DNA from: an uncultured virus (IMG/VR IMGVR_UViG_3300042336_000327)
Taxonomy: Duplodnaviria; Heunggongvirae; Uroviricota; Caudoviricetes
Virus record (IMG/VR): IMGVR_UViG_3300042336_000327
Location: 62,001-126,000 of that record
Length of the DNA: 64,000 nucleotides
Strand: one strand, 5' to 3'
The notes under the pieces: model-generated
Databases searched by the model: none
The model's input: only the letters and a program-made list of their open reading frames with translations
What the model was told of the DNA's origin: nothing
Shown: positions 10,818 through 18,398 of the stretch, piece after piece
Layout of the letters: the number at the start of each line of letters is the position of its first letter
Position numbering within the stretch: the first letter of the stretch is position 1
Made by a program: the position numbers and the translations under genes

Positions 10818-11789
10818 ATGGATTTGATTGACTCCAAGTACATTGGACTCGTTTCGTCACGCTTACAAAAGTTTAAGAGAGTCAAGGCAGATCTCTACAA
10901 CTTCCGCTGCCCACTGTGTGGCGACTCTCAAAAGAACAAAAATAAAACACGAGGATATATCTATCCCGTAAAGAATAACACAAACTTTAAGTGCCATAAC
11001 TGCGGAGCAAGTTTATCCTTTAATAACTTTCTCAAAGAGTTAGACCCTACACTTCATAAGCAATATACTCTTGAGAAGTTTAAAGAAGGACATACTGGTA
11101 GAAACTTTGTGGTTGAGGAACCCAAGTTTGAGTTTGCGAAACCAGTCTTCAAAAAGAAACTTGATTTACCCAAAGCATCAGAGAATCCTATTGCCAGAGA
11201 ATATCTGGAAAAAAGGAAACTCAATCCTGAAAAGTTTTATTTTGCTGACAAATTTAAGGAGTGGACGAACACTCAAAAAGTTACGTTTGACACTATCGGT
11301 AGGGATGAGAGTCGCATTATTATACCAATGTATGATACAGACTCCAACTTGATAGGTTTTCAGGGAAGAGCACTAGGTCCTAACCCTGTTAAATATATTA
11401 CTGTGATGCTTTCTGATGATTCGCCCAAACTTTATGGACTGGACCAAGTGGATTCTTCGGAACCCATTTACATTGTTGAGGGACCCTTCGACTCCACGTT
11501 TGTCAAAAATGCTGTTGCTATGTGTGGGTCCGACGTTGATATTAGGTCGTTTAATTGGAGCGATTATATTTACGTTTTTGATAACGAACCACGTAATCGA
11601 GAAATCGTCAACCGAATATCAAAAACCATCGACAGAGGCGACAAGGTGATTATTTGGCCAACATCAATCCAGCAAAAAGATATTAATGATATGGTTTTAG
11701 CTGGACTTAACGTTATGGATGTGTTAAAATCAAATACATACACAGGTCTAGAAGCAAAAATTAAGTTTAACAACTGGAAGAAAATATGA
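10818..11789 (+). CDS. gp61: DNA primase (gp61)
   Basis: Zn finger CPLCGD...CHNC, GFQGR, TOPRIM VEGPFDS, FDNE, KDIND. Confidence 0.96.
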   Translation: MDLIDSKYIGLVSSRLQKFKRVKADLYNFRCPLCGDSQKNKNKTRGYIYPVKNNTNFKCHNCGASLSFNNFLKELDPTLHKQYTLEKFKEGHTGRNFVVEEPKFEFAKPVFKKKLDLPKASENPIAREYLEKRKLNPEKFYFADKFKEWTNTQKVTFDTIGRDESRIIIPMYDTDSNLIGFQGRALGPNPVKYITVMLSDDSPKLYGLDQVDSSEPIYIVEGPFDSTFVKNAVAMCGSDVDIRSFNWSDYIYVFDNEPRNREIVNRISKTIDRGDKVIIWPTSIQQKDINDMVLAGLNVMDVLKSNTYTGLEAKIKFNNWKKI

Positions 11790-14083
11790 GCAACGGAACG
11801 AAAGTCGTTAAGAGAAATGGTAAAACTGAACCACTTGATTTAAATAAACTCCACGTTATGGTGGAAGAAGCCTGCAAAGACCTAGCAGGTGTATCAGCAT
11901 CTCAGGTAGAGATGCAATCAGGCATTCAATTCTATGATGGTATCACTACCGCAGAGATTCAGGAGATTCTGATTCGTTCTGCTTCTGACCTGATTGATCT
12001 GGATCATCCCAACTATCAATTCGTTGCTGCTCGCCTGCTTCTGTTCGCCCTCCGTAAGCAGTTGTTTGGTCGTATGCATGAATGCCCCACAGTTAAGCAG
12101 CACGTCCTTCGTGCCGTTGGTAGAGGTGTCTATGACCCAGAAATTCTTACCCTATACTCTGATGATGAGTTTGATAAACTTCAGTCGTTTATTGATCATA
12201 GTCGTGACTATCTGTTCACTTATGCAGGTCTACGTCAAGTCGTTGATAAGTACCTCGTGCAGGACAGAAGTTCTAACGAACTTTATGAGACGCCACAGTT
12301 TATGTACCTTTTGATTGCGGCGACAATCTTTTCCAAGTATCCTAAAGAAACACGTTTAGATTACGTTAGGAAGTACTACGATGCAATCTCCAAGCACAAA
12401 ATCAACATTCCCACACCTATCATGGCGGGAGTGCGAACTCCACTTCGACAATATGCTAGCTGTGTTCTTGTTGATGTTGATGACACCCTCGATAGCATCT
12501 TTAGTTCTGATATGGCTATCGGCAGATATGTTGCACAAAGGGCGGGTATCGGCATCAACGCGGGTCGCATCCGTGGCATCAACAGCAAAATCAGAGGCGG
12601 AGAAGTTCAGCACACAGGTGTTGTCCCTTTCCTCAAAAAGTTTGAAGCAACTGTCCGATGCTGCACTCAAAATGGCATCAGAGGTGGATCAGCAACTGTC
12701 CATTTTCCAATCTGGCACCAAGAAATAGAAGATATTCTAGTATTGAAAAATAATAAAGGAACCGAAGATAATCGTGTTCGTAAGTTAGACTATAGTATCC
12801 AAATCTCCAAACTGTTCTATGAACGCTTCATCCGCAACGAAGAGATTTCTCTCTTCTCTCCCCACGCCGTTCCTGGCTTGTATGATGCTTTTGGTACTGA
12901 TGGATTTGACGAGTTGTATGTTCGTTATGAACGAGATGAGTCTATTCCAAGAAAAACTATCGGAGCTCAAGAACTCTTTTTGGACCTCCTGAAAGAGAGA
13001 GCAGAAACAGGTCGTTTGTACATTATGAACATTGACCACTGTAACTCTCACTCATCCTTTATGGATAAGGTTGAGATGAGCAATCTGTGCCAGGAAATTA
13101 CTCTACCTACCAAACCAATTCAACATATTGATGACCCAAATGGTGAGATTGCTCTATGCATACTTTCTGCTATTAATGTTGGAAAAATTCGGGATAACGA
13201 GGATCTTGAAGTGCTTTGCGATCTTGCTGTTCGCTCTCTTGATGAACTTATTGATTTTCAAGGATACCCCGTCAATGCAGCAGAAATCGCCACCAGGGCA
13301 CGTCGTTCGCTTGGGGTAGGGTTTATTGGTCTGGCACACTATCTCGCCAAGCACGGCGAGCATTACGACGATCCTGGTGCTTGGAGACTGGTACATGAAC
13401 TTACCGAAGCATTTCAGTATTACCTAATTCAGGCAACTGTTAATCTTTCGAAAGAAAAAGGTGCTTGTGAGTATAGCAGCCGAACAAAATATGGCAATGG
13501 CATTCTCCCGATTGATACATACAAGAAGGACGTTGATGAAATTGTACCTAACGAATTGAAGTATGATTGGGAGCATCTTAGAGAGCAGGTACTCAAATAC
13601 GGGGTACGGAACTCAACATTGTCCGCACAGATGCCATCGGAGAGCAGTTCCGTTGTGTCAAATGCAACCAACGGAATCGAACCACCTCGCGGATACTTGT
13701 CCGTTAAGAAGTCGAAGAAGGGACCACTCAAGCAGATTGTTCCCCAGTATCAAACACTTAAGAACAACTATACGCTGCTGTGGGATATGCCTAGCAATCG
13801 CGGGTATATTCATATTGTTGCTGTTATGCAAAAATTCTTCGATCAAGCGATTTCTGGAAACTGGTCCTATAATCCAGAAAATTACCCAGATAATGAAGTT
13901 CCTACTTCAGTAATGGCACAGGACCTTCTAACTACATATAAGTACGGCTGGAAAACCAGTTACTATCAAAATACTTATGACCATAAGACTGATGAGGTTG
14001 AAGAAACCAAACAGTCTCTTGATAACTTAATTTCCGATATTCTAGACACGGAGGAGGAAGATTGTGAGTCTTGTAAGATTTAA
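11786..14083 (+). CDS. nrdA: Class Ia ribonucleotide reductase alpha subunit
   Basis: N-terminal ATP cone (VVKRNG), SCVL, SNLCQEI, KTSYY, C-terminal CESCKI. Confidence 0.98.
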   Translation: MSNGTKVVKRNGKTEPLDLNKLHVMVEEACKDLAGVSASQVEMQSGIQFYDGITTAEIQEILIRSASDLIDLDHPNYQFVAARLLLFALRKQLFGRMHECPTVKQHVLRAVGRGVYDPEILTLYSDDEFDKLQSFIDHSRDYLFTYAGLRQVVDKYLVQDRSSNELYETPQFMYLLIAATIFSKYPKETRLDYVRKYYDAISKHKINIPTPIMAGVRTPLRQYASCVLVDVDDTLDSIFSSDMAIGRYVAQRAGIGINAGRIRGINSKIRGGEVQHTGVVPFLKKFEATVRCCTQNGIRGGSATVHFPIWHQEIEDILVLKNNKGTEDNRVRKLDYSIQISKLFYERFIRNEEISLFSPHAVPGLYDAFGTDGFDELYVRYERDESIPRKTIGAQELFLDLLKERAETGRLYIMNIDHCNSHSSFMDKVEMSNLCQEITLPTKPIQHIDDPNGEIALCILSAINVGKIRDNEDLEVLCDLAVRSLDELIDFQGYPVNAAEIATRARRSLGVGFIGLAHYLAKHGEHYDDPGAWRLVHELTEAFQYYLIQATVNLSKEKGACEYSSRTKYGNGILPIDTYKKDVDEIVPNELKYDWEHLREQVLKYGVRNSTLSAQMPSESSSVVSNATNGIEPPRGYLSVKKSKKGPLKQIVPQYQTLKNNYTLLWDMPSNRGYIHIVAVMQKFFDQAISGNWSYNPENYPDNEVPTSVMAQDLLTTYKYGWKTSYYQNTYDHKTDEVEETKQSLDNLISDILDTEEEDCESCKI

Positions 14084-15248
14084 AACAGGTTTGGAGGAAA
14101 AATCAATGGTCGAATCAATGACCGTTTTTAATCCTCAGGAAGTAGATACCAAAAAGCAACCTATGTTTTTTGGACAACCACTGGGAATACAGAGATATGA
14201 TTCTTACAAATACCCAATCTTCGATAAACTAACCACACAGCAACTGGGTTACTTCTGGAGACCCGAAGAGGTTTCTCTTCAAAAAGATCGTAGCGACTAT
14301 CATATGCTACGCCCAGAGCAAAAGCATATCTTCACCAGCAACCTGAAGTATCAGGTGATGCTGGACTCAGTTCAGGGTAGGGGTCCTGGTATGGCATTTG
14401 CTCCATACTGCTCCCTTCCTGAACTGGAAGCGTGTATGAAGGTTTGGGAGTTTATGGAGATGATCCACTCCCGTTCATACACTTATATCATCAAGAATGT
14501 TTATTCGGACCCATCTGAAGTTTTTGATACGATTCTGAAAGAGGATCGTATTATGGAACGTGCCGTGAGTGTCACTCAGGCATATAACGATTTCATCAAC
14601 AGTGCCCAGCATTATGGTTCAACTAATGAATGGATTCATGCGTTAGAACAAGTACCATACGCACAAGAGGCAAGGTATGAACTCAAGAGAAAACTATTCA
14701 GAGCAGTTGCAAACGTTAATATTCTTGAAGGTATTCGCTTTTACGTCAGCTTCGCTTGTAGTTTTGCGTTTGGCGAACTCAAGCTTATGGAAGGAAGTGC
14801 AAAAATCATCTCACTGATTGCCCGTGATGAGAACCAACATTTGGTTATCACTCAGAATATTCTGAACAAATGGAAAGAGGGTGATGACCCTGAGATGGCA
14901 CGTATCTCCAAAGAAGAAGAGCAATGGTTTTACAAGACCTTTGAGAATGCTGTCAATCAAGAAAAACTTTGGGCAGAGTATCTGTTCAAGGATGGTTCTA
15001 TGATTGGTTTAAATGATAAACTTCTTCAGCAATATGTCGAGTGGATTGCCAATCGTAGAATGAAGGCAATTGGACTCAAACCACTTTATGATATTCCTGC
15101 GAAAAATAATCCACTTCCTTGGACTGAGCATTGGATCAGTTCTAAAGGTCTTCAAGTGGCGCCACAGCAAACGCAAGTGCAGTCATATATTGTTGGTGGT
15201 ATTAAGCAGGATGTTACCAAAGACTCTTTTGCTGGGTTCCAGTTGTGA
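14064..15248 (+). CDS. nrdB: Class Ia ribonucleotide reductase beta subunit with atypical Gln-rich tail
   Basis: FWRPEE, LDS, EMIHSRSY, LEGIRFY, RDENQH; tail reads APQQTQVQSY. GTG start after GGAGG. Confidence 0.97.
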   Translation: MSLVRFKTGLEEKSMVESMTVFNPQEVDTKKQPMFFGQPLGIQRYDSYKYPIFDKLTTQQLGYFWRPEEVSLQKDRSDYHMLRPEQKHIFTSNLKYQVMLDSVQGRGPGMAFAPYCSLPELEACMKVWEFMEMIHSRSYTYIIKNVYSDPSEVFDTILKEDRIMERAVSVTQAYNDFINSAQHYGSTNEWIHALEQVPYAQEARYELKRKLFRAVANVNILEGIRFYVSFACSFAFGELKLMEGSAKIISLIARDENQHLVITQNILNKWKEGDDPEMARISKEEEQWFYKTFENAVNQEKLWAEYLFKDGSMIGLNDKLLQQYVEWIANRRMKAIGLKPLYDIPAKNNPLPWTEHWISSKGLQVAPQQTQVQSYIVGGIKQDVTKDSFAGFQL

Positions 15249-15307
15249 TTGACATTAAGACTGAAATAGTGTATTATATAAATAATAATAGGTAAGTTCA
15301 GTCTTAA
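15249..15307 (+). promoter_or_regulatory. Sigma70 promoter (TTGACA-17-TATTAT), late promoter TATAAATA and an 11-bp inverted repeat next to the endonuclease start
   Basis: TTGACA 15249-54, TATTAT 15272-77, TATAAATA 15277-84; TTAAGACTGAA 15255-65 / TTCAGTCTTAA 15297-307. Confidence 0.8.
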
Positions 15308-15308
15308 A

Positions 15309-15923
15309 ATGAATAATTATATTCTTTACTACTACTTAAGGGAGGACTTTGGTTCTCCCTTTTATGTGGGATATGGGAAACCAAGAAGAATACACGCAAA
15401 ACATTTGAGAAGTAATGGTGCAAATCTATTACCACCAAGAGAAAGAAGATGGGTTGTAAAATCTGGTCTTACTAAAGAAGAAGCAATAGAGTTAGAAATA
15501 AAACACATAGCACTTTGGAAAAGAGAGTGTGATGGTGGTGTATTATTAAATCAAAATCTTGGTGGTGAAGGAAAACCTGGAGGACAAAAAACAATAGGTT
15601 TTGGTGGCAGAAAACACACCGAAGAAGCAAAGAAAAAAATAAGCGAAAAGGTTGCTGGTAAAAATAATCCAAGATATGGTGTTAAACTTTCACAAGAAAC
15701 AAGAAATAAAATAAGTCAAAATAGAGCACCAAAATTTGGAAAAGATAATCCAAACTCTAAAACTTGGAAAATCACTTCTCCAGAAAATAAAGAATATATT
15801 ATTGTTGGTGGATTAAAGAAATTTTGTAAATCTCAAAGTATTTCTTATGCAACAATGAATGCAGCAATACTTTATGACAGAAAAGGACCGAGAAAAAATG
15901 GATGGTCAATTGAGAAAATTTAG
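15309..15923 (+). mobile_element. Free-standing GIY-YIG homing endonuclease (Seg-like, NUMOD3 motif)
   Basis: LYYY...FYVG, R, E (AIELE), N (LLN) catalytic pattern; GRKHTEEAKKKISE NUMOD3-like helix. Confidence 0.85.
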
Positions 15924-16311
15924 AGTATCACTACCTGAAGATGAGTGTGTGATGAAACTTCAGGAGTATTGTAAGTTTTCTTCTACTTTACTGAAGATCC
16001 CTGTTATTAAAAAACCATTATGTATTGATGCAAACTGCCACAATAATGTAAATCATTATGTGAATACTTATGGCGGAGAAAAGATAAGTGGATACTATTT
16101 GATTACAGATACTGAAGATGAAACTTATGGATGTGCAATATATCATAGTATCTGGAAAAATACTTATGGAGATCTAGTTGATATAACTCCATTTGAGGAT
16201 GGTAGAGAATATAATATGTTTTCCGTTATGAATACTACAGAATATTACTCTGGGGTTGCATATGATGGAAAAAGATATAAATTATTAGAACCAGGACTTA
16301 ACATAATCTAA
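15898..16311 (+). CDS. Transglutaminase/papain-like Cys-His-Asp protein (putative deamidase)
   Basis: NCHNNV (Cys codon 16036), YHSIW, LVDITP. Start uncertain (ATG 15898 or TTG 15910); overlaps the endonuclease 3' end. Confidence 0.6.
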   Translation: MDGQLRKFRVSLPEDECVMKLQEYCKFSSTLLKIPVIKKPLCIDANCHNNVNHYVNTYGGEKISGYYLITDTEDETYGCAIYHSIWKNTYGDLVDITPFEDGREYNMFSVMNTTEYYSGVAYDGKRYKLLEPGLNII

Positions 16312-16472
16312 TGTTACCAAAGATACTTTCTCAGGATTCCAACTATGATGAATGGTGCGAACAGGAAATCCTGAACGCATATCAGGAAGCGGCAGAGTGC
16401 GATGAGTTTCTTTTTGGAGATTATGATTATTCCAAAGAATGGTTGGGTAAATGCAATGACGATGTGAAATGA
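16311..16472 (+). CDS. Small acidic 53-aa protein (MLPKILSQDSNYDEWCEQE...) whose 5' end is a relic copy of the nrdB 3' end
   Basis: Translated by hand; an alternative frame reads VTKDTFSGFQL*; terminator follows. Confidence 0.65.
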   Translation: MLPKILSQDSNYDEWCEQEILNAYQEAAECDEFLFGDYDYSKEWLGKCNDDVK

Positions 16473-16495
16473 GGGTCTTCGGACCCTCTTTTTTT
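16471..16495 (+). terminator. Intrinsic terminator GAGGGTC-TTCG-GACCCTC-T-run, abutting late promoter TATAAATA (16495-16502)
   Basis: Perfect stem with UUCG loop. Confidence 0.88.
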
Positions 16496-16530
16496 ATAAA
16501 TAAAATTATAGAAAAATCATAAAAGAAAAG

Positions 16531-17841
16531 ATGTCTAGACTTACAGGTAATGAAGTTGCAAATATGATGGAAGCATATAGTGCTGTCTATGCTCCTCAAC
16601 AAGAAGAAGTTGTAGAAAATGTTGAGAAGATCGATGAAAAAATGGATGTATTTTCTACACCTGCTATGAAATCTGCACAACAACAATCTGCCACTCAACT
16701 TTTGACAGGTAAAAAACCACCAGCTAAACCAGATTATCTTAAACCAGCTGTAACTGCAGGAGCAGCAAAGTTCTTCACTAAACCAGGTGCTGAAACTGAT
16801 AAATCTTGGGAAGTCGCTAGACAAAAAGCTGGTGTATCAAAACCTACACGTCCAGCAGGTTCAGGTAATCCTCCAGCAGGTTCAGGTAATCCTCCAGCAG
16901 GTTCAGGGAATCCACCAGCAGGCACTAAAACCGCTCCTGCTGCCTCTTCAGTCGTTCTTGCCAAGCAAGGTGGTGTAGAAGGTAAATTAGATAAGGCAAC
17001 TGGTAAATTCACTGCAGGTGCCTTTACAGGTGCTGAGAAAGAGCGTTATGTTGCTCGTGGTGGTAGTGCTGCTCCTTCTGCACCAAAACCAGCGGCACCA
17101 GCACAACCAAAGATTAAACAAGATGTCGCTGATATTAAAGCAATGCAAACGGCTTCTCAGATGAGACAGGCAGGTGCAAATGTTACATCAGACCAATTAA
17201 AGACACCACCATCAACCGCTGTTAATACATCACAAGCGACCGCAGCAGCATCTAATCTTAAAGCACCAGACCCCGCCACAAAATTCTCACAGGGAACTGC
17301 TGCAACCCCTAAACCAGTAGAGAATAAACCAACAACAGGTTTTGATCTTGCTAAAAAGGGTGTAAATCTTCAATCCCAATCCTTTGATATATTTGATATC
17401 ATCAAGGGTCATCTTCTTGATGAGGGTTATGCCGAAACTGAAAAAGCAGCTCTTGCTATTATGGCAAATATGGGTGAAGGGTGGAAAAAAGAAATTCTTG
17501 ATGAGATTGCACCTGCATTACTTGCTGGAGGTGTGCTTGCTAGTGGTGCTTTAGCGGCTATGGCAGCAAAAAATAAAATTGACAGAAGCAATGCTGCCAG
17601 AGCAAATACTAATCCATTTGCAAATCAACAAACTAAACCACTTCCTAGCACTCCTTCACCATTTGCTAAACCAGCAAGTAAGGATGACAGTGGTAGATTA
17701 ACAACCTATGGTGCTGGCGGCGGTGCTGCAGCAGAAAAAACAGGTCAAACTCGTGCCCAAGTTATGCAGCAAGGTGGTAAGAATCTTGAAAATAAAAACA
17801 AAATCAAACCAGTAAATCAAGGAACAGATTTCGGTCGTTGA
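16531..17841 (+). CDS. A/P/K-rich low-complexity late protein (putative head-internal protein)
   Basis: Late promoter upstream; DIFDIIKGHLLDEGYA...ILDE segment; PAGSGNP repeats. Confidence 0.6.
   Translation: MSRLTGNEVANMMEAYSAVYAPQQEEVVENVEKIDEKMDVFSTPAMKSAQQQSATQLLTGKKPPAKPDYLKPAVTAGAAKFFTKPGAETDKSWEVARQKAGVSKPTRPAGSGNPPAGSGNPPAGSGNPPAGTKTAPAASSVVLAKQGGVEGKLDKATGKFTAGAFTGAEKERYVARGGSAAPSAPKPAAPAQPKIKQDVADIKAMQTASQMRQAGANVTSDQLKTPPSTAVNTSQATAAASNLKAPDPATKFSQGTAATPKPVENKPTTGFDLAKKGVNLQSQSFDIFDIIKGHLLDEGYAETEKAALAIMANMGEGWKKEILDEIAPALLAGGVLASGALAAMAAKNKIDRSNAARANTNPFANQQTKPLPSTPSPFAKPASKDDSGRLTTYGAGGGAAAEKTGQTRAQVMQQGGKNLENKNKIKPVNQGTDFGR
16852..16922 (+). repeat. Coding tandem repeat of 21 bp (CCAGCAGGTTCAGGTAATCCT), about 3.4 copies
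   Basis: Read directly; encodes PAGSGNP three times. Confidence 0.9.
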
Positions 17842-17948: not shown

Positions 17949-18398
17949 ATGAGTTATGAAAACCCTTGGAGATTCAATGGGGAAATTTTTGAGTCTTCTG
18001 ATATTCAAGATAATTTTGGTTTCGTTTATCATATTCACTGTAATAAAACTGGTCGTAGTTATATTGGTAGAAAGTATTTCTGGTCTTTCCGCACACCAAG
18101 AGGAAAATCTAGAAAAGTTAAGTCAGAGTCCGATTGGAAAAGATATTACGGCTCCTGTCCTGAACTCAAAGCCGATATTGACATTTGGGGAAAAGCATCC
18201 TGCGACAGAAGAATACTTAGCCTCCATAAAACAAAAGGACAGTGTAACTACGAAGAAACAAAACAGCTTTTCCTAAATAATGTGTTGATCGAGTCTCTTG
18301 ACGATGGGAGTCCAGCGTATTACAATAGTAATATCCTAGGACGCTACATGCGAAAAGATTATGGAAATTTTGGAAAAGACTCTGAAACAATCACATGA
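17949..18398 (+). CDS. GIY-YIG family nuclease (conserved T4-like type)
   Basis: GFVY...YIGRK, W..YYGS, YEE, YYN motifs. Confidence 0.8.
   Translation: MSYENPWRFNGEIFESSDIQDNFGFVYHIHCNKTGRSYIGRKYFWSFRTPRGKSRKVKSESDWKRYYGSCPELKADIDIWGKASCDRRILSLHKTKGQCNYEETKQLFLNNVLIESLDDGSPAYYNSNILGRYMRKDYGNFGKDSETIT

Follow-up and report, generated by a model that had tools for sequence, protein, structure and literature searches.

A mobile homing-endonuclease cassette links a glutamine-coded ribonucleotide reductase tail to a candidate tail-maturing Cys-His-Asp protein

A homing-endonuclease cassette occupies the 3' end of nrdB, the gene for the beta subunit of class Ia ribonucleotide reductase (RNR), in an uncultured virus of the Caudoviricetes. 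The nrdB allele that travels with it encodes glutamine at tail positions otherwise held by glutamate, and it adjoins a gene for a small protein with conserved Cys, His and Asp. The reading favored here, to which a probability of about one half is given, is that the cassette is mobile and that the Gln-coded nrdB allele it carries needs the passenger enzyme, most simply for deamidation of Gln to Glu. The window, that is, the whole stretch of 64,000 nucleotides that was analyzed, covers positions 62,001-126,000 of IMG/VR record IMGVR_UViG_3300042336_000327 (136,982 bases, 72% complete). An initial annotation had described a recoded nrdB tail, a nuclease, a Cys-His-Asp open reading frame (ORF) and a second nrdB 3' end, and all four are found in the window, as listed here.

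11786..14083, + strand: nrdA, class Ia RNR alpha subunit (ORF and alignment to E. coli NrdA)
14106..15248, + strand: nrdB, beta subunit of class Ia RNR, 380 aa counted from the ATG at 14106 (NF006576, PF00268)
15165..15188, + strand: recoded tract Q-Q-T-Q-V-Q-S-Y (alignment to E. coli and phage NrdB)
15210..15248, + strand: the cassette's own last 12 nrdB codons and stop, identical to 16310-16348 at 29 of 39 nt
15249..15277, + strand: sigma-70-like promoter match TTGACA-17-TATTAT (11 of 12 consensus positions; a consensus match only)
15309..15923, + strand: 204-aa free-standing homing endonuclease with NUMOD3 and, N-terminally, a GIY-YIG-like module (NUMOD3, phrog_314)
15898..16311, + strand: Cys-His-Asp domain protein, 137 aa (phrog_37148, 119 homologue clusters, AF2 model)
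16310..16348, + strand: displaced original nrdB 3' end, NVTKDTFSGFQL plus stop in the nrdB frame, identical to 15210-15248 at 29 of 39 nt
16311..16472, + strand: conserved small gene, 53 aa (ORF; comparison with cassette-free cyanophages)
16471..16497, + strand: hairpin and T run resembling an intrinsic terminator, at the end of the unit (sequence match)

The promoter-like match lies directly 3' of the nrdB stop and 5' of the nuclease gene. The longest nrdB ORF begins at a GTG at 14064.

The window NrdB scores 481 bits with NF006576, the class Ia beta equivalog (cut-off 346), over residues 5-380 and model positions 3-376 of 376, and PF00268 matches it at E 1.2e-54. It has the di-iron ligands, the radical Tyr122, Trp48 and the tail Tyr356 of class Ia proteins, and has Gln at both of the positions, 350 and 352, at which that class has conserved Glu. 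The tail VAPQQTQVQSY is encoded at 15156-15188, with Gln codons CAA at 15168-70 (equivalent to E. coli E350), CAA at 15174-76 (E352) and CAG at 15180-82; the Tyr codon at 15186-88 is equivalent to Y356. Numbered from the ATG at 14106, these glutamines are Q355, Q357 and Q359. The initial annotation took APQQTQVQSY to be the end of NrdB; the tract is as it described, but 19 further residues follow the Tyr (IVGGIKQDVTKDSFAGFQL). Its comparison with E. coli is correct, since the fetched K-12 NrdB reads APQEVEVSSY, with E350 six residues ahead of Y356. The corresponding tails of phages S-SRM01, S-SKS1 and P-SSM2 are APQEVEIEQY or APQETEVESY.

In two studies, beta-E350 is called "conserved and essential", its substitution disrupts radical transfer, and it bonds K154 and S647 of the alpha subunit (PMC9248007, PMC11482829). 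The window NrdA keeps both of these partners as well as Y730, Y731 and C439, by comparison with E. coli NrdA. The E350Q protein itself is reportedly inactive, a result ascribed to Ravichandran et al. in 2017; a literature search for "E350Q" returned nothing.

Columns 350 and 352 are the only columns of the NrdB alignment that tell the 82 Gln-type proteins apart from the 66 Glu-type ones, and Glu stands at both positions throughout the 66 Glu-type phage proteins, as it does in all seven bacterial tails seen. The 82 distinct Gln-type proteins are full-length open frames, and every one of them, the window protein included, keeps W48, E52, D84, E115, H118, Y122, E204, E238, H241 and Y356. The Gln state spans nrdB lineages that are only about 50% identical to each other. 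It is held at the level of the protein, since both CAA and CAG are used at the three sites (73/3, 74/17 and 15/37, respectively, in the 97 domain-bearing loci). Decoding of CAA and CAG as Glu was considered and rejected, because every Gln codon would be affected and nothing was found in its support. Pattern matching across 185,579 species genomes gave 26 hits, none of them a Gln-tail NrdB, and neither the Gln tail nor the domain was found in the cellular genomes or cultured phages searched. The literature searched yielded no published description of a Gln-tail NrdB with a partner enzyme.

The Gln tail and the Cys-His-Asp domain are linked across loci. A pooled census covered 159 distinct IMG/VR loci, among the matches listed, with at least 1500 nt downstream. 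The domain adjoins nrdB in all 95 loci with Gln at 350 or 352, comprising 76 of 76 with Q350 and 19 of 19 with E350 and Q352, versus 2 of the 64 with all-Glu tails. This linkage is far beyond chance, and the co-occurrence check that had been proposed with the initial annotation is thereby answered in the affirmative almost without exception. A tail-first scan of IMG/VR with tblastn found the domain at 58 of 61 loci with APQQTQVQ[ST]Y tails; in the three misses the sequence stops 195-914 nt past the site, and in one of these (L055) the start of the domain is visible at the contig end by HMM. The domain also accompanies 73 of 73 true NrdB tails with QVAPQQ in IMG/VR (flank of at least 1500 nt) and none of the 65 tails with ETEVES (flank of at least 1300 nt). 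In a domain-first scan, all 80 loci adjoin nrdB.

The nuclease has a NUMOD3 motif at residues 100-136 (E 7e-14) and matches the homing endonucleases of phrog_314 (E 3.4e-16); TIGR01453 falls below its cut-off, and Pfam detects no GIY-YIG domain even at E up to 10. The nuclease of locus L394 is homologous to it over the whole length, 36.7% identical over 248 aligned columns, and scores 35 bits with the GIY-YIG-type family PF22945 (cut-off 27). The earlier assignment to the GIY-YIG/NUMOD3 type therefore stands for NUMOD3, whereas for GIY-YIG it is the homologue, not this copy, that passes a Pfam model. At this site the nuclease is missing in S-SRM01, S-SKS1 and P-SSM2, as it is in 61 of the 64 distinct loci with all-Glu tails, so that it is present or absent at one site among relatives in the manner of a homing endonuclease.

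The cassette brings its own nrdB 3' end, which bears out the earlier suggestion that it is mobile: the nrdB end is duplicated, and Gln-type tracts have sequence differences in common. In addition to the end at 15210-15248, the displaced copy at 16310-16348 agrees at 29 of 39 nt, and a recognizable second copy occurs in 28 of 97 cassette loci, in none of the 62 domain-less loci and in none of the reverse-strand controls. In cassette-free phages the small gene found here at 16311-16472 overlaps the nrdB end by 38 nt. Although a relic copy is present as the initial annotation claimed, it is not dead DNA, because this conserved small gene starts within it; the displaced nrdB end is now the 5' end of the next gene. 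Gln-type tracts share synonymous differences (CAG GTG ... CAG ahead of the Gln codons), which fit inheritance by co-conversion. A mosaic profile for co-conversion was run against the nearest Glu-type nrdB and is uninformative, since that gene is just 82% identical.

The ORF of about 135 aa that had been noted for its NCHNNV, HSIW and DITP motifs is present, encodes 137 aa and overlaps the end of the nuclease gene. Alternative starts lie at 15874 and 15859, the length is put at 137-145 aa, and the true start may be 15874, because most homologues have 137-146 aa. The ORF matches phrog_37148, to which no function is assigned, and has 119 homologue clusters; the wider domain takes in 788 cluster representatives (E at most 0.001). 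Cys47 is encoded at 16036-38, His83 at 16144-46 and Asp95 at 16180-82. The three residues are invariant in alignment A1 and, across 152 domain instances, near-invariant in the order that had been proposed (Cys 144/148, His 144/145, Asp 146/147), together with an Asn (144/148) and a Thr (144/147). Two independent AF2 models, with pLDDT 89.4 for the window protein and 91.1 for the other, place the Cys at the N-terminus of a helix and the His and Asp on the following strands. By its conservation and predicted fold, the domain looks enzyme-like.

Membership in a deamidase or transglutaminase family, which had been suggested, was not borne out by profile and structure searches. Pfam gives the domain no family, an hmmsearch of the PDB with the domain profile finds nothing at E up to 10, hhalign against the PF01841 alignment (of only 6 sequences) gives a probability of 0.1-0.3%, and Foldseek finds no PDB match for either model at E 0.001 or better. 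Every structural match falls below Z 5, in the stated noise range of a tool whose guide value is about Z 8, and among the candidates for this enzyme class none exceeds 3.9. Within that range, the lowest-rmsd matches over the Cys-to-Asp stretch for both models are PeiW (Z 2.8 and 3.6, rmsd 2.9 and 2.8 A, 72 residues) and TglA of S. pyogenes (Z 3.0 and 3.9, rmsd 3.4 and 2.7 A, 79 and 73 residues); staphopain gives Z 2.4, likewise within noise. Beta-alpha-beta-beta-beta modules of glyoxalase-type proteins score equally high. Any match of the predicted fold to transglutaminase-like enzymes is weak. Among the nearest ESM Atlas clusters with a Pfam family there is a weak YunG lead (score 0.86). BFVD gives a fused nuclease form at E 2.8e-7 and, at TM of about 0.5, uncharacterized and functionally uninformative proteins, including those of Vibrio phages phi50-12 and JA-1 and Erwinia phage vB_EamP-S6. 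Complex prediction for the domain with NrdB residues 335-380 (score 0.01, mark 0.32) counts neither way.

In searches for the domain beyond the nrdB cassettes, query P0124 against IMG/VR and metagenomes matched 89 loci through the nuclease part only, with the domain in none of the 91 scanned, which comprise those 89 together with L529 and L530. Query P0123 recovered the same nrdB cassettes, and P0182 gave nothing useful. Against cultured phages, the window ORF has no tblastn match, P0165 and P0169 match through their nuclease parts only, and P0129 and P0147 match one scaffold, which is of an uncultured gut phage. Distant relatives occur elsewhere, a point against the favored reading; one example has a SEC-C motif and lies between the genes for a Y-family polymerase and a YolD-like protein.

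Taken as a mechanism, the favored reading would run as follows. A homing-endonuclease cassette has entered the nrdB 3' end of an uncultured T4-like cyanophage, carrying a replacement nrdB tail, the nuclease and the small Cys-His-Asp enzyme. In this tail, first-base G-to-C changes have turned the codons for the invariant E350 and E352 and one more Glu into Gln codons, and the tract would be the allele, resistant to the nuclease, that the cassette takes along. Since radical transfer to NrdA requires the tail Glu residues, NrdB would be restored to function by the passenger enzyme once translated. In the simplest route, the side-chain amides of Gln would be hydrolyzed by way of a Cys47 thioester, as in transglutaminase-type chemistry, to give Glu, and loss of the enzyme would then cost the phage its ribonucleotide reductase.

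The linkage could instead be purely physical, since the tail tract travels as one with the nuclease and the domain. The Gln tract would then be simply nuclease-resistant and tolerated, while the domain would serve homing, in target choice, regulation or another step, or have an unrelated role. The domain is indeed often fused N-terminally to GIY-YIG/NUMOD3 nucleases and C-terminally to a DUF723 nuclease-type protein (L185, L188), and of 48 hand-picked longer relatives, 13 have a GIY-YIG-type match and two a DUF723 match. Close-family members, all those that could be placed, share one cassette at one site, and the synonymous tract differences and the lack of a family-level match to deamidases are also as this explanation would have it. 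Two loci, L394 and L422, have the cassette beside all-Glu tails. They make up 2 of the 97 domain-bearing loci, and 19 of the 97 have Glu at 350 with Gln only at 352 (and 354); the "recode-and-repair" idea of the initial annotation is supported in its linkage, its mobility and its Cys-His-Asp set, but these loci count against its simple form.

Against a purely physical linkage, four loci without the nuclease (L039, L268, L272 and L440) hold an intact domain ORF and a Gln-bearing tail, and a fifth (L037) has a nuclease remnant of only 59 aa. Because loci that have lost the nuclease retain both domain and Gln tail, the dependence, or "addiction", that was originally suggested fits. Loss of the domain is seen in none of the 95 Gln-tail loci. 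Conversely, a nuclease in locus L187, which shares 59% identity with the nuclease portion of the L185 fusion, has no domain with it and stands beside a Glu tail, ETEISS. The near-invariant Cys, Asn, His, Asp and Thr look catalytic rather than DNA-binding. E350 is also reported as essential (PMC9248007, PMC11482829), and its NrdA partners are unchanged. On balance the hitch-hiking explanation is unlikely, though it retains appreciable weight.

The domain might act on the Gln tail in a way other than deamidation, by transamidation to a lysine of NrdA, by trimming of the tail or by binding as a non-catalytic adaptor. The linkage evidence is the same for these options as for deamidation, and for transglutaminase-type Cys-His-Asp enzymes, amines can serve alongside water as acceptors of the Gln acyl group. 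Contact of E350 with alpha K154, described in PMC11482829, would suit transamidation, and K154 is kept in the window NrdA. Yet a covalent link between alpha and beta would be unprecedented for an RNR, and each of these chemistries is hypothetical. All 66 Glu-type phage proteins and all seven bacterial tails seen have Glu at both 350 and 352, so that restoration of Glu would be the simplest fix, and these other actions appear improbable. That the Gln-tail NrdB is no working subunit, but a gene in decay or, as a tail-defective variant, a poison or regulator of RNR, is highly improbable: E350 substitutions do disrupt radical transfer in E. coli (PMC11482829), but the metal, radical and pathway residues are kept throughout the 82 full-length Gln-type proteins, the adjoining nrdA is intact, nrdB is single-copy in the 136,982-base record (72% complete) and the Gln state persists across widely diverged nrdB lineages.

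Dependence on deamidation by the passenger enzyme can be tentatively extended to a general strategy, one that is somewhat doubtful as a whole. Nucleases of this kind may aim at the first-base G of the invariant Glu codons of the RNR beta tail, the carrier may be immune by way of Gln, and a Cys-His-Asp "protein maturase", sometimes fused to the nuclease, may restore the protein. If so, an essential enzyme would be encoded inactive and edited to activity by an enzyme of a selfish element, as a protein-level counterpart of self-splicing, and there would be a third way, besides introns and inteins, for a selfish element to occupy an essential gene. The element would also be addictive, as the surviving loci without a nuclease suggest. 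The reading would further account for a homing nuclease exploiting a target that is unable to escape by silent mutation, would supply a function for a widespread uncharacterized domain (the 788 cluster representatives), and would give class Ia RNR, an enzyme with decades of work on its tail Glu350, a post-translational switch. Even if the chemistry is different, the strict genetic dependence of Gln-tailed NrdB on one neighboring gene demands explanation.

The proposed enzyme can be compared with transglutaminase- and papain-like Cys-His-Asp enzymes, among which is protein-glutaminase. It shares with them the order of Cys, His and Asp, with the Cys at a helix start and the His and Asp on the next strands, and a D-x-T-P motif after the Asp resembles that of a PF01841 member, L447 (DPTP). 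It differs in that profile similarity is absent, Z is at most 3.9 and the domain is much smaller, with a core of about 90 residues. PeiW, described in PMC2989375 as a pseudomurein endoisopeptidase and transglutaminase-like Cys-His-Asp enzyme, gives predicted-model matches that are weak but repeated (Z 2.8 and 3.6).

Free-standing homing endonucleases lie by the nrd genes of T4-like phages, among them Seg proteins and mobE, which sits between nrdA and nrdB (PMC2790892). As in those systems, the nuclease gene lies between conserved genes and is variably present among relatives, has a NUMOD3 architecture with a GIY-YIG-like module, moves with flanking target sequence, and is found with a carrier target unlike that of naive genomes. 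Unlike those systems, the carrier allele is non-synonymous at invariant, functionally essential Glu codons, and an extra enzyme-like domain is always in the cassette, sometimes fused to the nuclease.

Maturation of an encoded Gln to Glu is a known process. Chemoreceptors are deamidated by CheB and CheD, and the C-terminal Gln of Pup by Dop. There, as proposed here, a functional Glu is gene-encoded as Gln and converted by a specific partner enzyme. The present case differs in that the substrate would be an RNR tail, the gene pair is on a mobile element, and the Gln state is derived and polymorphic among close relatives; there is also no similarity of the domain to CheD, CheB or Dop, since Pfam gives it no family.

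Addiction modules include toxin-antitoxin and restriction-modification systems. As with these, loss of one component would harm the carrier. Unlike these, there is no toxin, and dependence would stem from a crippled essential enzyme. Inteins and intron-encoded maturases are selfish elements in essential genes that supply an activity restoring the host product, and the proposed element would likewise supply a restoring activity for its essential host gene. The ORF has no Hint domain, since Pfam reports no family for it. In contrast to inteins and maturases, nothing would be spliced, and the proposed repair would be a side-chain edit made by a separate enzyme.

The window's NrdB scores 481 bits against the class Ia beta subunit equivalog model (cut-off 346), and the initial annotation read its C-terminal tail, VAPQQTQVQSY at 15156-15188, correctly. 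It was also right about the E. coli counterpart, as the K-12 sequence is VAPQEVEVSSY, with E350 six residues ahead of Y356. T4-like cyanophages are the nearest relatives of the nrdB region, which shares 77% DNA identity with Synechococcus phage S-SRM01, and the tails of S-SRM01, S-SKS1 and P-SSM2 are APQEVEIEQY or APQETEVESY. Since these relatives and E. coli encode Glu, three Glu codons are Gln codons in the window, two of them at the positions of E350 and E352; each is a Glu codon with its first-base G replaced by C. The source virus record (136,982 bases, an estimated 72% complete) contains no second nrdB. The genes and signals around the tail are ordered as follows.

11786-14083: nrdA, first in the gene order
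14106-15248: nrdB, 3' of nrdA
directly past the nrdB stop: promoter-like site TTGACA-17-TATTAT, a near-consensus match (11/12 consensus positions)
15309-15923: NUMOD3 homing endonuclease gene (the nuclease), 204 aa, between nrdB and the domain ORF
15859/15874/15898-16311: Cys-His-Asp domain ORF (the domain), 137-150 aa from alternative starts, 3' of the nuclease gene
16310-16348: second copy of the nrdB end, NVTKDTFSGFQL-stop, 29/39 nt identical to the present nrdB end
16311-16472: small gene, 53 aa, 3' of the domain ORF
3' of the 53-aa gene: terminator-like hairpin, last in the unit

Further downstream, 16531-17841 (+) encodes a 436-aa protein, rich in Ala, Pro and Gly and containing three PAGSGNP units in tandem, which has no family in Pfam or PHROG and is strongly variable in sequence among otherwise similar cassette loci. 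A second, separate GIY-YIG gene at 17949-18398 (+) encodes a SegE-like endonuclease domain protein of 149 aa (PF19835, 171 bits), with homologues downstream of the cassette in loci L393 and L440 too.

Gln tails and the domain were found together by several routes. An exact tail-first scan of IMG/VR for APQQTQVQ[ST]Y, run as a degenerate pattern, yielded 61 loci, and a homologue of the domain ORF (34-100% identity) lies downstream in 58; the contigs of the other three end 195-914 nt past the site, and one of them (L055) shows the domain start at the contig end. A wider IMG/VR scan for any QVAPQQ tail gave at least 119 loci, and among those listed every genuine NrdB tail whose flank reaches 1500 nt (73 in all) is accompanied by the domain. 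The remaining two long matches (L242, L270) are not NrdB and were excluded. This set takes in a second large phage group, with tails QTQISS or QTQITS and NrdB about 50% identical to the window's. A control pattern allowing Glu or Gln at three sites gave at least 120 loci, all of those listed being ETEVES, and neither the domain ORF nor a window-type nuclease was found in the 65 listed whose flank is 1300 nt or longer. When the domain was used as the query, the best 80 loci all adjoin nrdB. After removal of duplicates, 159 distinct loci with at least 1500 nt downstream were pooled, which are not a random sample, because the searches selected on tail or domain, and in which members of the same cassette lineage are not independent.

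Tail residues (E. coli NrdB numbering), domain and nuclease at the pooled loci
Gln at 350: 76 loci; domain in 76/76; nuclease in 71, partial in 2, absent from 3
Glu at 350 and Gln at 352: 19 loci; domain in 19/19; nuclease in 18, absent from 1
Glu at both 350 and 352: 64 loci; domain in 2/64 (L394, L422); both genes absent from 61; nuclease alone in L187

No Gln-bearing tail lacks the domain among these 159 loci, and the co-occurrence anticipated in the initial annotation is almost perfectly borne out. At the three Gln sites of the 97 domain-bearing loci, CAA and CAG occur 73 and 3, 74 and 17, and 15 and 37 times, Gln being held at the residue level while its codons drift silently; the exceptions are 21 loci with Glu at 350 and a few in which 352 is Glu, Ala, Thr or Val. 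One locus, L188 (3917-5089), encodes a fused domain-nuclease with Cys, not His, after the putative catalytic Cys (NCCEYN), adjoining a tail with a single Gln, APQQTTISSY. A QVAPQQ search of 185,579 prokaryote species, one genome apiece, produced 26 matches, none of them an NrdB tail; as a positive control, 401 genomes from a single class were scanned for the Glu-form tail, and 7 have it. The cultured phages of INPHARED lack the domain, and they lack the cassette too, none of their 536 records that match the nrdB region spanning at least 80% of the query. No description of a cassette joining Gln-tail NrdB to the domain was found in a search of largely open-access literature.

We favor the reading, with a probability of roughly 0.5, that the domain repairs the NrdB tail from Gln to Glu; that the whole forms an addictive recode-and-repair cassette is a tentative extension, at somewhat less than even odds. 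The main weaknesses of repair are the physical linkage of tract, nuclease and domain, the occurrence of domain-bearing loci with Glu350, and that no Pfam or PF01841 match places the domain with enzymes of such chemistry. Hitch-hiking, with the Gln tail tolerated by NrdB, is the alternative that survives best and is still unlikely. Nuclease and domain are separated at a few loci: L039, L268 and L272 (Gln tails) and L440 (ETQVQS) have no nuclease gene, the domain ORF directly following nrdB and ordinary phage genes, such as glutaredoxin, coming next, and in L037 the nuclease is reduced to a 59-aa remnant. Cys, His and Asp are kept in the domain ORFs of all of these, with Ile replacing the conserved Thr in L272. 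At L187 the same site holds a nuclease but no domain, beside the tail ETEISS; this nuclease shares 59% identity with the nuclease portion of the L185 fusion. The numbers are small, and such a pattern would be expected if Gln-tailed NrdB needs the domain and would not be expected if the domain merely helps the nuclease.

An E350Q substitution in E. coli NrdB is said to be inactive. In two reports, E350 is bound by NrdA K154 and S647 in the E. coli holoenzyme (PMC11482829) and is termed 'conserved and essential' (PMC9248007). K154, S647, Y730, Y731 and C439 are all kept in the window's NrdA when aligned to that of E. coli. It is improbable that the domain acts on the Gln tail in some way other than Gln-to-Glu repair. 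That the Gln-tailed NrdB is non-functional is very improbable, given that its residues otherwise point to a normal enzyme: E350 and E352 are the only columns separating 82 Gln-type from 66 Glu-type NrdBs (148 distinct full-length proteins), and W48, E52, D84, E115, H118, Y122, E204, E238, H241 and Y356 are kept in 82/82 of the former.

The initial annotation described a GIY-YIG/NUMOD3 endonuclease and, past the domain ORF, a relic copy of the nrdB 3' end. NUMOD3 is present (E 7e-14), but no GIY-YIG domain is found by Pfam in the window copy; along its full length this copy is homologous to the L394 nuclease, which passes the LEM-3-like GIY-YIG model. The supposed relic is a real copy of the nrdB 3' end but is read instead as the start of the small downstream gene; because that gene begins inside nrdB in cassette-free phages, with a 38-nt overlap, the second copy keeps its start. 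Such a copy lies downstream in 28/97 cassette loci versus 0/62 domain-free loci, with none on the opposite strand. In the phage group of proteins P0130, P0132 and P0137, the predicted domain ORF runs into the old nrdB end, reading through into a displaced NrdB tail (...GDAKMDV...F.GL.L) at its C-terminus. Gln-type tracts share silent differences, even between distant nrdB lineages (CAG GTG GCN CCN CAG CAA versus CAA GTT GCA CCA CAA GAA in Glu-type tracts). Nuclease modules vary among cassettes (204, 226 and 245 aa types, and fusions) and the domain is constant. The ~204-aa and ~245-aa N-terminal types (L371, L394, L412 and L436 versus the window) adjoin near-identical domain genes and share their last ~40 residues (...ISYATM.AAI.Y.RKGPR.NGWSIE), which suggests module swapping inside the cassette. 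Shared silent sites, nrdB-end copies and swapped nucleases together indicate that the cassette has spread among nrdB genes with its own tail segment, and we infer that the Glu-coded tract is the cut site of the nuclease.

The motifs NCHNNV, HSIW and DITP, picked out in the initial annotation, are all present in the domain ORF. The domain has no Pfam family and matches PHROG 37148 (E 3.2e-7), to which no function is assigned there; its relatives form 119 close clusters, none named, and a profile search gave 788 representatives with E no higher than 0.001. In a hand-picked sample of 48 longer representatives, a GIY-YIG-type match follows the domain in 13 (6 over the Pfam cut-off), DUF723 precedes it in 2 and a C-terminal SEC-C motif occurs in 5. 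A distant relative with a C-terminal SEC-C motif, on uncultured gut phage scaffold MT836086.1 (L601, 3396-3980), is flanked by a Y-family DNA polymerase (IMS) and a YolD-like gene, and therefore the superfamily extends beyond nrdB cassettes. The predicted fold is also shared (TM ~0.5, 15-18% identity, BFVD) by uncharacterised proteins of the cultured Vibrio phages phi50-12 and JA-1 and Erwinia phage vB_EamP-S6.

Of 152 domain instances, 144 or more keep each of Cys, Asn(+3), His, Asp and Thr(+2). The window protein and a distant SEC-C member, modelled with AF2 at pLDDT 89.4 and 91.1 respectively, both have a strand, a Cys-initiated helix, a His-bearing hairpin and an Asp-bearing short strand. 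Foldseek found no solved structure at E 0.001 or better for either model, the highest VIA Z covering the domain among solved structures was 3.7-3.9, not a clear match, and the domain profile has no similarity to six PF01841 domains. Of the proposed deamidase-like enzyme, the conserved Cys, His and Asp stand, and the domain is therefore named Cys-His-Asp enzyme-like only, its placing in the transglutaminase-like superfamily being tentative at most. Over the Cys-to-Asp stretch, the lowest-rmsd and longest matches of both models, though weak, are PeiW and S. pyogenes TglA, with staphopain also among the matches (Z 2.4), and the Cys-His-Asp triad of PeiW is described as homologous to those of transglutaminases and papain (PMC2989375).
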